This document shows positions 1-5,297 of a stretch of DNA of 5,297 nt, piece by piece (the stretch's first letter is position 1; every line of letters starts with the position of its first letter). The DNA is taken from IMG/VR virus record IMGVR_UViG_2531839665_000011; one strand, written 5' to 3'. The notes under the pieces were generated by a model that had not been told where the DNA came from, made no database searches, and saw only the letters and a list, made by a program, of their open reading frames with translations. Source of the stretch: a virus (Duplodnaviria > Heunggongvirae > Uroviricota > Caudoviricetes). The position numbers and the translations under genes were made by a program.

Positions 1-1
1 C

Positions 2-973
2 AGCCAGCTTGCGGATGAGATGGCGGAGATGAAGACCACCATCACGAAACCCCGCAATGAAATCACACAGACGGTCAGTAAAACGCTGGAAGACCAGAGC
101 GCCACCATTCAGCAGATACAGCGCGTGCAGAAGGACACAAATGATGACCTGGCTGCGCTGTACATGCTGAAGGTTCAAAAAACGAAAGACGGCATTCCCT
201 ATGTGGCCGGTATTGGAGCGGGGATTGAGGATACTGATGGCCAGCCACTGAGCAACATACTGCTGCTGGCTGACCGTATCGCGATGATAAATCCGGAGAG
301 CGGCAACAGCACTCCGTTATTTGTGGCGCAGGGGAATCAGCTGTTCATGAACGACGTGTTCCTGAAGCGTCTGTTTGCGGCGAGTATCACGTCATCCGGC
401 AACCCCCCGACGTTTTCCCTGACGCCGGAAGGGAAGCTGACAGCCAGGAACGCGGATATCAGCGGAGCAATTACCGCGAATACCGGCACGCTCAATAATG
501 TCACCATTAACGAGAACTGTGTCATCAGAGGGAAACTGTCTGCAAACCAGATTGAAGGCGACCTGGTGAAGACGGTGGGGAAAGCCTTTCCCCGGAATAA
601 CAGTTATGCCAGCGGGACGGTAACCGTCACAGTTTACGATGACCAGGGCTTCGACCGGCAGATCATCATTCCCCCGGTGCTGTTTCGCGGGACGAAACAC
701 CAGAATTTCAACAGCCCGAATCAGCAGTCGTACTGGTATTCCACCTGTAAGCTGCAGGTGCTGAAGAACGGGGTTGAGATTTTCCATGAACCGGCAACGG
801 ATGTCAGCCGGGTGTTCTCATCGGTGATAGATATGCCGGCAGGGCGGGGTCATGTCACCCTGACGTTTAATGTGTCGTCGGCCGGTGCGAACAACTGGAC
901 GCCGACAACGTACATCAGTGATTTACTGGTTGTGGTGATGAAAAAATCCACAGCAGGTATCAGTATCAGCTGA
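2..973 (+). CDS. J: Phage tail tip host-specificity protein J (lambda J-like), C-terminal part; 5' end lies upstream of the window
   Basis: Reading frame is open from the first base of the window (no stop between 2 and the ATG at 20) to TGA at 971-973. Translation resembles the C-terminal receptor-binding region of lambda J as I recall it. Followed by a hairpin terminator and then lom and stf, the lambda gene order. Confidence 0.8.
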
Positions 974-990
974 ATTTTATAACCCAGAAC

Positions 991-1018
991 GGGCGTCAGA
1001 AATGACGCCTTTTTTATT
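991..1018 (+). terminator. Rho-independent terminator downstream of J (tJ-like)
   Basis: Stem GGCGTCA (992-998), loop GAAA, stem TGACGCC (1003-1009), then TTTTTTATT. Confidence 0.6.
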
Positions 1019-1039
1019 GCAGAAAAGCGAGAGGTAATT

Positions 1040-1433
1040 ATGCGTAAACTTTATGCCGCCATTTTGTCCGCAGCCATTTGTCTGGCCGTATCCGGTGCGC
1101 CTGCATGGGCGTCTGAACATCAGTCCACGCTGAGCGCGGGGTATCTTCATGTCTCGACGAACGTTCCCGGCAGCGATGATCTGAACGGGATTAACGTGAA
1201 ATACCGTTATGAGTTTACGGACACACTGGGGATGGTGACGTCTTTCAGCTATGCAGGAGACAAGAATCGCCAGCTGACCCATTACAGCGATACCCGCTGG
1301 CATGAAGATTCCGTTCGTAACCGCTGGTTCAGCGTGATGGCGGGGCCCTCTGTGCGCGTGAATGAATGGTTCAGCGCGTATGCGATGGCGGGCGTGGCTT
1401 ACAGCCGTGTGTCGACTTTTTCCGGGGATTATC
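1040..1433 (+). pseudogene. lom: lom 5' fragment (Ail/Lom/PagC-family outer membrane protein), interrupted by IS insertion
   Basis: RBS GAGAGG upstream of ATG 1040. Signal peptide MRKLYAAILSAAICLAVSGAPAWA, then sequence matching lambda Lom up to ...STFSGDYLR. The ORF then runs into IS terminal sequence (ITVKEIGE, stop at 1463-1465). The rest of Lom resumes at 4015. Confidence 0.85.
1429..1433. repeat. Target-site duplication, left copy (TTATC); alternative reading is a 7-bp ATTATCT at 1428-1434
   Basis: lom sequence ggggATTATCT is present at the left junction and ATTATCTccgcgtaactgac at the right junction; the overlap is the duplicated target. Confidence 0.5.
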
Positions 1434-1482
1434 TGCGTATTACCGTGAAGGAGATCGGTGAGTAACATCGATGGAGATCGGT
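1434..1482. repeat. IS left terminal inverted repeat region
   Basis: TGCGTATTACCGTGAAGGAGATCGGTGAGTAACATCGATGGAGATCGG pairs with the reverse complement of the right end, TGCGTATTTTCATGAAAGGAGATCACTCAATAACTTCCATCGAGATCGG. Confidence 0.6.
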
Positions 1483-1518
1483 TCGTGTCACTTTCACAGA
1501 ACCGTTTTTAAATTACCT

Positions 1519-2268
1519 TCACTGATCTCCTTCGGTCAACGGAGATTGTATTTTCCGCATTGATTCTCCTTTAAGTTCGATCTTGATACTGCCATGAACC
1601 AGTCGATCTAGGATGGCATCCGCATGTGTGGAGTCTCCGATCATTTTGTACCAGTTTTCCACCGGCAACTGGCTCACTACGATGATTGAGCCTCGTTGGT
1701 ACATCAGATCCACTATTTCCAGCAGGTCGCTACGCTGTTCTGATGAGAGAGGTTCCAGCCCCCAGTCATCCAGAAGCAGCAGATCGCTATTATTCAGCCT
1801 GGTCAAAAGTTTGCTGTATCTTCCATCAGCATGCCCCTGATAGCACTGTTCCATCAGCGCTTTAAGGCGATAATAGTAGACCTTGTATCCCTGTCGGCAG
1901 GCATTATGACCAAGTGCACATGCCAGGAACGTTTTACCGCTGCCGGTGGCCCCGGTCAGTAAAATATTTTGTTTCAGGGTTAACCAGTTTCCCTGACTGA
2001 GTGAACGGATGAGGGCCCTGTCCAGCCCTCTATTGTTACGATAATCCAGCTTTGATAACTCAGCATTAAGTCTGAACCGTGCATGTTTGATCAGACGCTC
2101 TGCCTTCCTGTTTTCACGGCAGGTTAGTTCTTCTGCTGTCAGTAATGACAGGCGTTCTTCGAAGCCCAGCTCCTGGTATGTGCCCGGCTGAGCAAGTTGC
2201 TTTTTAAGCGCATCACGGAAGCCGGTGAGTTTAAGTGCGGTCAGTTGTTCGTAAAGATGATTCATCAT
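1519..2268 (-). CDS. istB: IS21-family helper ATPase IstB (AAA+/DnaC-like)
   Basis: 249 aa. Walker A GATGSGKT and Walker B LLLLDDWG. Start ATG at 2266-2268 preceded by GGGA, 11 nt after the istA stop. Confidence 0.9.
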   Translation of the reverse strand: MMNHLYEQLTALKLTGFRDALKKQLAQPGTYQELGFEERLSLLTAEELTCRENRKAERLIKHARFRLNAELSKLDYRNNRGLDRALIRSLSQGNWLTLKQNILLTGATGSGKTFLACALGHNACRQGYKVYYYRLKALMEQCYQGHADGRYSKLLTRLNNSDLLLLDDWGLEPLSSEQRSDLLEIVDLMYQRGSIIVVSQLPVENWYKMIGDSTHADAILDRLVHGSIKIELKGESMRKIQSPLTEGDQ

Positions 2269-2279
2269 TGGATCCCGTA

Positions 2280-3281
2280 TCAGTGGTAATACTCACTGCC
2301 GCGTACGTTTTCGTGTTCCATCGTGGATAACAGATCTGGTTTTGGATCCTGAACAGGTTGTTTATCCAGACCTTTTTCCAGGATCGATTTAATACCTGAC
2401 AGACGCCATACCTTTGTTTTCAGAGCTCTTGCACATGCTGCATTAAGTCTGGCTTTACTGTATTTTTTATGAAGGTTCAGGAGTCCAAGGCAGAAGCGAT
2501 AGCTTTGTTCCGGATGTGGACGAGAGTTCAGTATATGAAGCACATAACTATGAGTTTCACTGCCTATGTGCCCCGCCCATTCCAGAAGACGCTCTGGCGT
2601 CCAGGTGGCATGCTGTCGATGAGCTTCAGGCATGTGCTCGTTGCGGGTACTGTAGCCATAAGTACGCTTGCGCGGGTGCACAGCAACCTCCTGCCCCTGA
2701 TTGAAGAGTCTTACCAGTTCTCCGGAGATCCATGCTTCCAGTTGCTGGCCTAACAGCGAACATGGAACCGAGTAGTAATGTTTGTCGATTTCCACGTGGT
2801 AATCGGCATGAACTCTGACTTTCTTCACCAGGGTGTAACTGTAACTGGCTTCAGGAAGAGGCTTCAGTGCGGGTTTATCAAGCTGGATGAAGAGTTCTGC
2901 ACGTGAATAACCCAACTTCTGCATTATTTTGTTATTCAGTCTTTCCAGCAACTCCCGAATGCGCTGATTAAGCGATGCAAGGCTGTAGAAGATCTCATGC
3001 CTGATTCGGGCCATGATCCAGCGTTCAACAACCTGAACGCCAACTTCAGCTTTGGCTTTATCTTTCGGTTTACGTGGCCGCGCAGGCAAAACTGCGACAT
3101 TATAATGCTCAAGCATCTGCTGGTAGGTAGGGTTAACGTCAGGATCATACTTACATGCCCTGGATGTGGCGCTTTTCAGATTGTCCGGAACAACAAGTTC
3201 AGGAACGCCACCCAACCACTGGAAGCAGCGAACATGACTCATCACCCAGTCTTCAAGCTGCTGAGACCAGGTGGTCTCTGC
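2280..3281 (-). CDS. istA: IS21-family transposase IstA, C-terminal catalytic part (downstream of an in-frame amber codon)
   Basis: Same frame as the N-terminal ORF. Contains VVPDNLKS (second Asp of DDE) and [14 protein letters not shown] (Glu of DDE). Translation is continuous across the 36 nt between the amber codon and the first internal GTG/ATG ([25 protein letters not shown]). Confidence 0.75.
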
Positions 3282-3821
3282 CTATGTGTAACTTGATGCC
3301 CCGAGAACAGCTACGATGACCTGAGCAGTTCTTATTTCTCCGGTCTCAGGGTCGGTAACGCCAACGGTAGGTCCACAGTAATCAACGAAAAGTTTTTCGC
3401 CAGCTTTATGTACCTGACGCATTGATGGTGAAGTGGTTTTGAGCCATTCACGGTACATCCGGCAGTAATGGTTATAGCTGTAAAAACCGCCTGGATTACG
3501 CTCACAGTATTCTTCCCAGAGTAGCTGCAGCGTCACGCATTTATTACGCAGTTCCCGGTGTACTGTAGCCCAGTCAGGCAGAGAGTGCTTCTTCATCTTA
3601 ACCTGGGTCTGAAGGAACGCATGTTTTAGTTTTGTATCATCCCATCCTGTAGGTAAGGGCCACTGCTTTATGCCAAGTTGAGCCGCCCGATTAGCATATC
3701 TGGATACAACGGAAGGGGAGATTGCAAGACTACGACCAATTTGTCGATGGCTGAGTCCAACACCGTATTTAAGCCTAAGAATTTCTTTAAGTTTTCTCAT
3801 AGAAATTGGAACTGTTGGCAT
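3282..3821 (-). CDS. istA: IS21-family transposase IstA, N-terminal part (HTH and first catalytic Asp region), ending at an in-frame TAG
   Basis: ATG at 3819-3821 with AAGGA 7 nt upstream. HTH-like LSHRQIGRSLAISPSVVSRY. LFVDYCG resembles the first DDE Asp region of IS21 IstA. Ends ...GASSYT at amber codon (plus-strand cta, 3282-3284). Confidence 0.75.
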   Translation of the reverse strand: MPTVPISMRKLKEILRLKYGVGLSHRQIGRSLAISPSVVSRYANRAAQLGIKQWPLPTGWDDTKLKHAFLQTQVKMKKHSLPDWATVHRELRNKCVTLQLLWEEYCERNPGGFYSYNHYCRMYREWLKTTSPSMRQVHKAGEKLFVDYCGPTVGVTDPETGEIRTAQVIVAVLGASSYT

Positions 3822-3885
3822 AGGTATCCTTTACCGGAATGGCAAAAGATACAGATCAACACACCTGTGAAGTTCCAATAACATT

Positions 3886-3997
3886 GATGGAGATCACTGA
3901 ATAACAAAATGAGTCAAAAGTGATCTCCATCGATGTTATTCAGCGATCTGTTCAAATGTTATTACCCGATCTCGATGGAAGTTATTGAGTGATCTCC
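3886..3997. repeat. Iterated terminal repeats at the IS right end (putative IstA binding sites)
   Basis: Motif GTTATT-N4-GATCTC(C) as three direct copies at 3935-3950, 3958-3973 and 3981-3997 (23-bp spacing) plus one inverted copy at 3889-3905. Perfect 12-bp inverted repeat GATGGAGATCAC (3886-3897) / GTGATCTCCATC (3920-3931). Confidence 0.7.
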
Positions 3998-4014
3998 TTT
4001 CATGAAAATACGCA
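3966..4014. repeat. IS right terminal inverted repeat region
   Basis: Reverse complement matches the left end with a few mismatches and indels; ends ...AATACGCA. Confidence 0.6.
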
Positions 4015-4019
4015 TTATC
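4015..4019. repeat. Target-site duplication, right copy (TTATC); alternative 7-bp ATTATCT at 4014-4020
   Basis: Same lom-derived sequence as at 1429-1433. Confidence 0.5.
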
Positions 4020-4225
4020 TCCGCGTAACTGACAACAAGGGGAAAACGCATGATGTGCTGACCGGAAGTGATGACGGTCGCCACAGCAACACGTCTCTGG
4101 CGTGGGGGGCTGGCGTGCAGTTTAACCCGACCGAATCCGTGGCCATTGATATTGCTTATGAAGGCTCCGGCAGTGGCGACTGGCGCACTGACGGTTTCAT
4201 CGTGGGTGTCGGTTATAAGTTCTGA
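4015..4225 (+). pseudogene. lom: lom 3' fragment (C-terminal ~70 codons of Lom)
   Basis: Translation YLRVTDNKGKTHDVLTGSDDGRHSNTSLAWGAGVQFNPTESVAIDIAYEGSGSGDWRTDGFIVGVGYKF matches the Lom C-terminus; stop TGA at 4223-4225. The listed ORF start (GTG 3989) lies inside the IS end. Confidence 0.85.
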
Positions 4226-4251
4226 TTAGCCAGGTAACACAGTGTTATGAC

Positions 4252-4279
4252 AGCCCGCCGGTTCAGGCGGGCTTTTTTG
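4252..4279 (+). terminator. Rho-independent terminator downstream of lom
   Basis: Perfect 8-bp stem AGCCCGCC (4252-4259) / GGCGGGCT (4266-4273), 6-nt loop, then a T-run. Confidence 0.6.
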
Positions 4280-4289
4280 TGGGGTGAAT

Positions 4290-5297
4290 ATGGCAGTAAA
4301 GATTTCAGGTGTACTGAAAGACGGCACAGGAAAACCGGTAGAGAACTGCACCATTCAACTGAAAGCCAGACGGACCAGCAGCACGGTGGTGGTGAACACG
4401 GTGGCCTCTGAAAATCCGGATGAAGCCGGTCGTTACAGCATGGACGTTGAGTACGGTCAGTACAGCGTCATTCTGTTGGTGGAAGGATTCCCGCCGTCAC
4501 ATGCCGGGACCATCACCGTGTATGAAGATTCTCAACCCGGTACGCTGAATGATTTTCTCGGTGCCATGTCGGAGGATGACGTCCGGCCGGAGGCACTGCG
4601 CCGTTTTGAACTGATGGTGGAAGAGGTGGCGCGTCACGCTGAGGAGGCGAAGAAGAATGCCGGAGAGGCGGAGACGTCAGCGAGGAATGCCGGCATATCA
4701 GCCAGTCAGGCAGAAGAGAGCGCTGCAAATGCTGACACTTCAGCAGGGGAGGCATCGGAGTCAGCCCGGCAGGCGGCAGAAAGTGCAGCCTCAGCAAAGC
4801 AGTCAGAGGATGCGTCCTCGTCCTCGGCTTCTGCGGCCGCTCAAAAAGCCAGTGAGTCATCACAAAGTGCAGCAGAAGCTGAATTGTCAAGAAAGACGGC
4901 AGAAAGTGCAGCCGGTAATGCAGCCAGGGATGCAACGACCGCAACAGAAAAAGCCCGGGAGTCAGCAGAAAGCGCACAGTCAGCGGAACAAAGCAGGATA
5001 GCGGCGGAAGAGGCCGTAAACCGAATCCCCACCGTGGTGGGACCTCCCGGGCCAAAGGGGGGAACAGGGGGCCCGCGGGTCCTCAGGGGCCGAAGGGTGA
5101 TAAGGGAGAGCGCGGTGACACCGGCCCTGTCGGGGCAACCGGCGAACGGGGACCGGCAGGTGATGCTGGTCCGGCAGGCCCGCAGGGGCCGAAAGGTGAC
5201 AGGGGAGAGCGGGGAGAGACCGGTCTGACGGGAAAATGCAGGTCCACAGGGTCCAAAGGGAGATACCGGTGCGGCAGGCCCGGCAGGCCCACAGGGA
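4290..5297 (+). CDS. stf: Side tail fibre protein Stf (lambda stf/orf401-like), N-terminal part continuing beyond the window; reading frame disturbed in the collagen-like region
   Basis: [17 protein letters not shown]...[25 protein letters not shown] matches the lambda Stf N-terminus, so ATG 4290 is the likely start rather than GTG 4284. Ala/Ser/Glu-rich segment, then Gly-X-Y collagen-like repeats from ~5040. Frame 0 hits TGA at 5226-5228 only because of frame slips at 5057-5071; the Gly-X-Y phase continues in another frame and returns to frame 0 after 5237. Confidence 0.8.
5040..5297 (+). repeat. Collagen-like Gly-X-Y triplet-repeat coding region within stf
   Basis: GPPGPKG (frame 0), then [56 protein letters not shown] (frame +2), then [19 protein letters not shown] (frame 0 again). 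Confidence 0.75.

Follow-up and report, generated by a model that had tools for sequence, protein, structure and literature searches.

Evidence for an inherited Trp180-to-stop allele in the transposase gene of an ISEc12 copy within an Escherichia coli prophage

A distant homologue of known structure of the transposase considered here is IstA of IS5376 from Geobacillus stearothermophilus. Its catalytic triad consists of D124, D187 and E233, and mutating these residues nearly abolishes integration (PMC10122671). The protein acts as a tetramer, and its binding to the element ends was proposed to mask the promoter (PMC10122671). Furthermore, the purified IS5376 proteins IstA and IstB integrate donor DNA in which the terminal repeats are the only part of the element (PMC10122671). 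IstA of ISEc12 belongs to the same family and has the same architecture, with HTH domains, a DDE core and a beta-barrel. We borrowed the HTH-1/HTH-2/DDE domain layout used below from IS5376 IstA (PMC10122671). The two proteins are nevertheless distant, with an E-value of about 3e-13 over residues 107-391 and lengths of about 400 aa for IS5376 IstA compared to 513 aa for ISEc12 IstA.

A closer reference is provided by intact ISEc12 copies, such as those on the plasmid NZ_CP032263.1 and the chromosome NZ_AP017620.1. Their ends, their istB gene and their gene order are the same as in the copy studied here. They carry TGG at istA codon 180 and GCC at codon 183 and encode a 513-aa IstA (WP_001298859.1), whereas our copy has TAG and ACC at these codons and encodes no 513-aa IstA. 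A third class of related systems are non-autonomous IS derivatives (MITE-like elements), which a full-length relative mobilises in trans. Like our copy they have intact ends, lack a functional transposase of their own and occur at more than one site. MITE-like elements are, however, internally deleted miniatures, while our copy is of full length and carries a single nonsense mutation.

The stretch of DNA analysed here (the window, 5297 bp) is the exact reverse complement of the whole draft contig AFAA02000031.1 (GCA_000194495.2). Its features are listed in Table 1. Our reading, of which we are highly confident, has two parts that are to be taken together: the window stems from an E. coli lambdoid prophage, in whose tail region ISEc12 transposed into lom, and the stop allele was inherited and marks a minor ISEc12 sub-lineage at several insertion sites. 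In silico excision of the IS together with one copy of TTATC regained an uninterrupted lom ORF of 199 aa. In an annotation lom should be labelled as IS-disrupted. Compared to the E. coli JB2 chromosome (see below), the window differs in homopolymer length at about 45-50, 5057, 5067 and 5233, and its tail-fibre gene is frameshifted.

Table 1. Features of the 5297-bp window; strand refers to the window as read 5' to 3'.
Feature	Position	Strand	Remark
gpJ phage tail-tip gene, 3' end	20..973		
lom (Ail/Lom outer-membrane protein), 5' part	1040..1433	+	cut by the IS
Target-site duplication TTATC, left copy	1429..1433		
ISEc12 (IS21 family), 2581 bp	1434..4014	-	istA and istB on minus strand; identity to other ISEc12 copies begins and ends exactly here
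istB, AAA+ helper ATPase, intact	1519..2268	-	RefSeq start 2265
istA codons 181-513 and stop	2280..3281	-	D213, E259, Mu-transposase-like beta-barrel, C-terminus; untranslatable as part of IstA here
Palindrome GAGACC-AGGT-GGTCTC	3263..3278		perfected by 3275 C>T; GGCCTC in intact copies
Codon 183, ACC (Thr)	3273..3275	-	intact copies: GCC (Ala); linked derived change, C>T at plus-strand 3275
In-frame amber TAG, codon 180	3282..3284	-	plus-strand cta
istA codons 1-179	3285..3821	-	N-terminal DNA-binding region, start of DDE core, D147
Target-site duplication TTATC, right copy	4015..4019		
lom, 3' part	4015..4225	+	beyond the IS
Tail-fibre gene, start	from about 4290		

The element shows the features that define the IS21 family. 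Its ends (TGCGTATT...AATACGCA) are terminal inverted repeats of the form 5'-TG...CA-3' and are flanked by the 5-bp duplication TTATC. istA, encoding the DDE transposase (3821..2280), is followed by istB, encoding the AAA+ helper ATPase (2268..1519). Matching copies bear RefSeq product names of the 'IS21-like element ISEc12 family'. Searching a sequence that spans the element against 5,426 complete E. coli genomes yielded matches in 2,245 records; the median number of copies in ISEc12-carrying genomes is three. The istB product matched the profiles Pfam IstB_IS21 with 227 bits and NCBIfam IS21_help_AAA with 270 bits (cut-off 200), and the istB DNA is annotated in JB2 as WP_001016257.1, which is the protein of intact ISEc12 copies. 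Compared with two intact copies (L002 and L003), 2579 of the 2581 bases of the IS are identical. The sole differences are located at positions 3275 and 3283, such that the terminal repeats and istB are unchanged. A chance pattern of open reading frames was ruled out, since the whole 2581-bp element is only two nucleotides away from intact ISEc12.

Translating the minus strand from 3821 to 2280 provides one frame of 513 codons with a single internal stop, a TAG. The first-pass annotation had described an in-frame TAG (plus-strand cta, 3282-3284) that splits istA, and this is what we found in an otherwise continuous frame: the list of ORFs contains 3821..3282 (179 aa) and 3245..2280 (321 aa), which have their frame in common. 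After restoring Trp at the stop, IstA obtained 308 bits against NCBIfam NF033546 'IS21 family transposase' (transpos_IS21), for which the cut-off is 160. The Pfam domain rve matched residues 139-252 of the read-through protein, which places the stop at codon 180 inside the catalytic core; Mu-transpos_C_2 was matched as well. In an alignment with IS5376 IstA (PDB 8B4H/8Q4D) D147, D213 and E259 pair with D124, D187 and E233, i.e. with the complete DDE triad. The stop is thus located between the first and the second catalytic Asp (D147 and D213), as had been proposed from the letters of the window. The 179-aa product retains D147 and the N-terminal region, while D213, E259, the beta-barrel and the C-terminus are missing.

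Where the window has T at positions 3283 and 3275, the intact copies on NZ_CP032263.1 and NZ_AP017620.1 have C. Codon 180 changed from TGG (Trp) to TAG by a transition, G>A on the coding strand and C>T on the plus strand at 3283. The first-pass annotation had considered a single-base change from a Tyr codon (TAC or TAT) as the simplest origin of the stop. The single-base change was right, whereas the Tyr codon was wrong, since the intact ISEc12 copies have TGG throughout. Tyr is found at this site only in the distant IS5376 IstA, where Tyr154 aligns with Trp180 of ISEc12. The linked A183T substitution (3275) had been overlooked in the earlier annotation. It is absent from the alleles that carry only the TAG (L010-L012, L014 and L015).

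We then consider how widespread the allele is. An 81-mer covering both sites was found at 4,226 places in 1,904 records from the 5,426 complete E. coli genomes. In 7 of the 1,904 records the match was 100%, while the next-ranked rows matched at 97.5%, with both bases different; a record with a single mismatch was not present among the 1,904. The stop allele accordingly occupies 7 of the 4,226 places (about 0.2%), and more than 99% of the copies have TGG. One of the seven records is the chromosome of E. coli JB2 (NZ_CP182203.1; rabbit farm, China), in which the identical IS with the same TAG is found at the identical lom junction. RefSeq annotates the JB2 istA (locus ACNHKV_RS18275, within the split Ail/Lom gene) as a pseudogene with an 'internal stop'. 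JB2 is a different strain from the source of the window, and substitutions as well as homopolymer lengths distinguish its flanking gpJ and tail-fibre DNA. The remaining six exact records are complete plasmids from swine isolates (China, USA and Korea), where the two-base allele resides in a ParB-family gene or in what is left of this parB insertion after rearrangement. In a large assembly collection the 179-aa product was recorded on 41 contigs. Neither the two-base nor the TAG-only allele gave an exact 40-mer match in one-genome-per-species contigs or in JGI metagenome contigs. A further candidate for a TAG copy (L019) turned out to be a false positive: its contig ends at codon 179 and has C at the position that matches 3283, i.e. 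the TGG allele.

These data bear on two ideas of the first-pass annotation. With intact copies encoding 513 aa and the identical JB2 copy annotated as a pseudogene with an 'internal stop', its proposal of an inactivated IS copy is supported as far as an autonomous element is concerned. It had also asked whether other family members naturally have a stop or a two-ORF arrangement at this site. With TGG in more than 99% of the copies checked, a natural two-ORF or recoding arrangement does not apply; the stop is seen in 7 of 1,904 records, and IS5376 has a sense codon (Tyr) at the site.

The allele was found at several insertion sites. Plasmid pCAU16175_2 contains a complete copy of the element in parB that is flanked by its own duplication, CCATG. 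To the two-base allele this CAU16175 copy adds IstA S24I and IstB D162E, two changes that are both non-synonymous. A look-up of the 179-aa product provided, besides the window itself with its lom copy, three contigs with TAG copies in parB. One parB-site copy (L013) has 0 differences to the window IS over 2581 bp despite the different, duplication-flanked sites. A third site, with the duplication TGCTGGC, lies beside a type I restriction gene and holds a copy that has only the TAG and is otherwise consensus. A further TAG copy is located in an MFS gene adjoining iucA; it is flanked by the duplication TCTGG and has private SNPs at 3220 and 2188. Two more TAG copies (L010 and L014), both with a SNP at 1800, are at sites without duplications. 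The same defective allele is thus present at more than one duplication-flanked site. The SNPs are nested: the consensus leads to the TAG-only allele; the 3275 change then defines one branch, that of lom and parB, within which the CAU16175 copy gained its two changes. Among the 5,426 complete genomes the parB junction was seen in 6 records and the lom junction in 1 (JB2), with the mutant allele in all seven and a TGG copy at neither junction. In five complete genomes the copy at the MFS/iucA site combines TGG with the SNPs 3220 and 2188, and in one Logan contig TAG occurs on that haplotype at the same junction. The five genomes were found with a concatenated query of four junctions, which is only partly informative as it joins repeated pieces of the IS.

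A W185>TAG allele of ISEc12 is found in three complete records, the FDAARGOS_1059 chromosome, the B20123 chromosome and the plasmid pB20123_2. The B20123 chromosomal and plasmid copies both have clean duplications. As for W180amber, an istA Trp codon is changed to TAG, the copies are annotated with an 'internal stop', and more than one duplication-flanked site is occupied. W185amber is, however, an independent allele: it lies five codons downstream, at plus-strand 3268, which is the inner C of the Dcm site CCAGG at 3267-3271. Several further truncated IstA products are on record. Together with W185amber they make nonsense decay at istA Trp codons a recurrent and unremarkable process.

Translation of istA stops after 179 residues, and the copy is a transposase pseudogene. 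An uninterrupted transposase ORF, as an autonomous copy has it, is lacking here owing to the TAG at codon 180. Being without D213, E259, the beta-barrel and the C-terminus, the 179-aa product should not be able to catalyse transposition, and the fragment is expected to fail in strand transfer in particular. We are confident that the feature is an ordinary ISEc12 transposase pseudogene with an inherited Trp180>stop change in a non-autonomous copy. With ends and istB intact, the copy is a non-autonomous IS that could be moved only if IstA is supplied in trans. Mobilisation would need full-length IstA from another ISEc12 copy or rare read-through of the UAG. That purified proteins integrate DNA with the repeats only makes the action of IstA in trans mechanistically possible. 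A product re-initiated at the GTG at 3245 would have neither D147 nor the DNA-binding region. Polarity may in addition lower the expression of IstB, as about 1 kb of mRNA upstream of istB would be left untranslated.

The occurrence of the allele at several sites is most simply read as movement of the element at least once after it gained the stop, which the data suggest. Such movement requires a supply of IstA in trans, and we infer mobilisation of the IS in trans here. That W180amber, and independently W185amber, kept inserting by means of IstA from intact copies, or less likely by UAG read-through, has in our estimate a nearly even chance. In the literature that we searched, a cis-preference of IS21 IstA was not stated directly. 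The JB2 chromosome has a single ISEc12 copy, and in a search for a helper ISEc12 on the JB2 plasmid pEc-JB2-4 only IS100 was seen in the first 50 kb of 240 kb. In the window, a draft contig of 5.3 kb, the IS was joined to its flanks by the assembly, and ISEc12 therefore appears to be single-copy in the genome of the window as well. Given the sole chromosomal copy in JB2 and the assembly together with the flanks, the element may now be stranded.

The strongest alternative is that the copy is dead and has not moved since the mutation, while the allele was spread by gene conversion or recombination or arose recurrently. We consider this possible, with prospects clearly poorer than even. The MFS/iucA site speaks in its favour, where the private SNPs 3220 and 2188 occur with TGG as well as with TAG, which indicates short-patch conversion, in-situ recurrence or a chimeric short-read assembly at least there. 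The absence of target duplications at L010 and L014 indicates IS-mediated rearrangement, and the neighbouring W185amber in the Dcm site is plausibly recurrent. Recurrence would, however, have to recreate both substitutions, and an allele with a single one of them was not seen among the 1,904 records. Likewise, the lom and parB junctions were never found with a TGG copy in the 5,426 complete genomes. Movement of the element is moreover the simplest explanation for the identity of the lom and parB copies over 2581 bp.

Alternatively, the amber codon could be decoded by a suppressor tRNA of the host or by natural UAG read-through, such that the copy would remain autonomous. This would account for identical nonsense alleles at several duplication-flanked sites, for W185amber at two such sites within one genome (B20123) and for the missing second ISEc12 copy on the JB2 chromosome. 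Natural E. coli strains, however, rarely contain amber suppressors, and the typical level of spontaneous UAG read-through lies well under a few percent. Since IstA of IS5376 is a tetramer, activity should drop steeply with decreasing concentration, which argues against read-through. A tRNA scan of the window found none and hence no suppressor tRNA there. The stop is confined to 7 of 4,226 places in complete genomes, and RefSeq calls those copies pseudogenes. Also, both changes of the CAU16175 copy (S24I and D162E) are non-synonymous, as expected of a decaying gene, the numbers being tiny. The suppressor host put forward in the first-pass annotation therefore gains no support from a window free of tRNA genes and from the more than 99% of copies with TGG, and we regard decoding of the amber codon as quite unlikely.

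Still less probable, and in our view a marginal candidate, is that the truncation was selected, with the 179-aa fragment being a DNA-binding inhibitor or repressor of ISEc12, like truncated transposase inhibitors elsewhere. The fragment keeps the region that aligns with the two HTH domains with which IS5376 IstA binds the terminal repeats, so that by analogy it might bind the ends or hinder intact IstA; the promoter masking proposed for IS5376 would fit such a role. The allele has also lasted long enough to be present in isolates of rabbit, swine and further origin across three continents. Against this stands that it makes up about 0.2% of the copies with no sign of a sweep, and other truncations nearby (a stop after residue 184 and a 192-aa frameshift product) are more in line with random decay than with a selected design.

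That the low quality of the draft contig produced a base-call or assembly error where the true sequence is TGG has a negligible chance, although the first-pass annotation had kept a base-call error as an option: the draft problems seen in the window are homopolymer indels that frameshift the tail-fibre gene while the TAG is a substitution, and the independent complete JB2 chromosome, the six complete plasmids, further NCBI and Logan contigs with both substitutions and the 41 contigs with the truncated product exclude it.

An annotation should thus present the two ORFs as one istA pseudogene of ISEc12 and not as two genes, and beyond that the feature is of little importance. Such copies are already known, as public records annotate them as IS pseudogenes. 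The only mildly new point is that the mutant allele sits at several insertion sites, which suggests that mobilisation continued in trans. If movement after the mutation is true, it provides a small natural data point for the action of IS21-family IstA in trans on defective copies. A full-length 'pseudogene' IS would then act in natural populations of E. coli as a non-autonomous element that is still mobile, which would bear on how counts of 'pseudogene' IS copies relate to actual mobility. The locus also shows cleanly how independent assemblies can tell a genuine, inherited nonsense allele apart from an error of a draft assembly.

The two amber alleles differ in their mutational context. Deamination of 5-methylcytosine classically affects the inner C of a Dcm site, and W185amber, unlike W180amber, is explained by the Dcm site at 3267-3271. 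Dcm-site deamination was rejected as the cause of the change at 3283, where the context is TGCCCATG and not CCWGG. A local quasi-palindrome able to template the 3283 change was not found. A 9-mer inverted match to the 3283 region exists 300 bp off (3576-3584), which may be due to chance. The change at 3275 has the signature expected of a mutation templated by a quasi-palindrome, and we infer such an origin for it. It lowers the energy of the plus-strand hairpin, calculated with RNA energy parameters, from -7.0 to -12.1 kcal/mol.

The second istA substitution of the two-base mutant allele (3275 C>T, A183T) turns a quasi-palindrome into a perfect palindrome, as expected for quasi-palindrome templated mutation. 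Jointly with the W180amber change it also lengthens an inverted 7-mer to a 9-mer, TCTCTGCCT versus AGGCAGAGA, which may be a chance match. A further nonsense change affects the Trp185 codon, which is contained in a Dcm site. This W185amber allele is independent and was found in FDAARGOS_1059 as well as in the chromosome and a plasmid of B20123 (loci L023, L024 and L025). Both B20123 copies possess a clean target duplication and otherwise have the consensus sequence.

Coordinates of the features, as window positions or window equivalents unless a plasmid is named
Feature	Position	Detail
Palindrome	3263-3278	GAGACC-AGGT-GGCCTC to GAGACC-AGGT-GGTCTC
Inverted 9-mer match	3275-3283 / 3576-3584	
Dcm site	3267-3271	CCAGG
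W185amber	3268	C>T
Extra changes, pCAU16175_2 copy	1783, 3751	
Private SNPs, MFS/iucA site	3220, 2188	
SNP common to L010 and L014	1800	
Homopolymer differences, window vs JB2	about 44-50, 5057, 5067, 5233	extra G or A, C/A run shift
True substitutions, window vs JB2	5157-5265	
IS100, intact istA and istB	46198-47999 of pEc-JB2-4	240-kb JB2 plasmid

The copy of the two-base mutant allele on plasmid pCAU16175_2 (L004) carries two extra changes, both of them non-synonymous: in IstB, D162E (1783), which immediately precedes the LLLLDDWG motif, and in the N-terminal part of IstA, S24I (3751). These are consistent with relaxed constraint.

At one insertion site both states of codon 180 were encountered. 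The copies L012 and L020/L022 are inserted at a common position in an MFS gene adjoining iucA, with a common TCTGG duplication and common private SNPs. The codon at this site reads TGG in five complete genomes and TAG in one Logan short-read contig. Either the mutation recurred in situ, or short-patch gene conversion took place, or the assembly is chimeric. Two other TAG-bearing copies (L010 and L014, in GCA_001284405.1 and GCA_001285905.1) have one SNP in common and lie, judging from the flanking genes, at different flanks of a CP4-44-like island. Neither copy has a target duplication, which suggests an IS-associated deletion or recombination.

The contig underlying the window is of draft quality. 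AFAA02000031.1 (NCBI assembly GCA_000194495.2), taken complete and reverse-complemented, is exactly window 1-5297, and both ends lie within phage tail genes, which are repeated among lambdoid prophages. Compared to the JB2 prophage the window contains several homopolymer-length differences, which throw the collagen-like Gly-X-Y part of the tail-fibre gene out of frame, locally disturb gpJ and are probably draft sequencing errors. True substitutions between the two were found as well (see table).

An intact ISEc12 copy with a GCCAA duplication is present in E. coli C51 (L021), a few hundred bases away from where the TAG-only copy (L011/L015) is inserted. The same type I restriction gene adjoins both, and ISEc12 seems to have targeted the region beside it repeatedly. 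JB2 additionally carries IS100 (L009), a distantly related IS21-family element.
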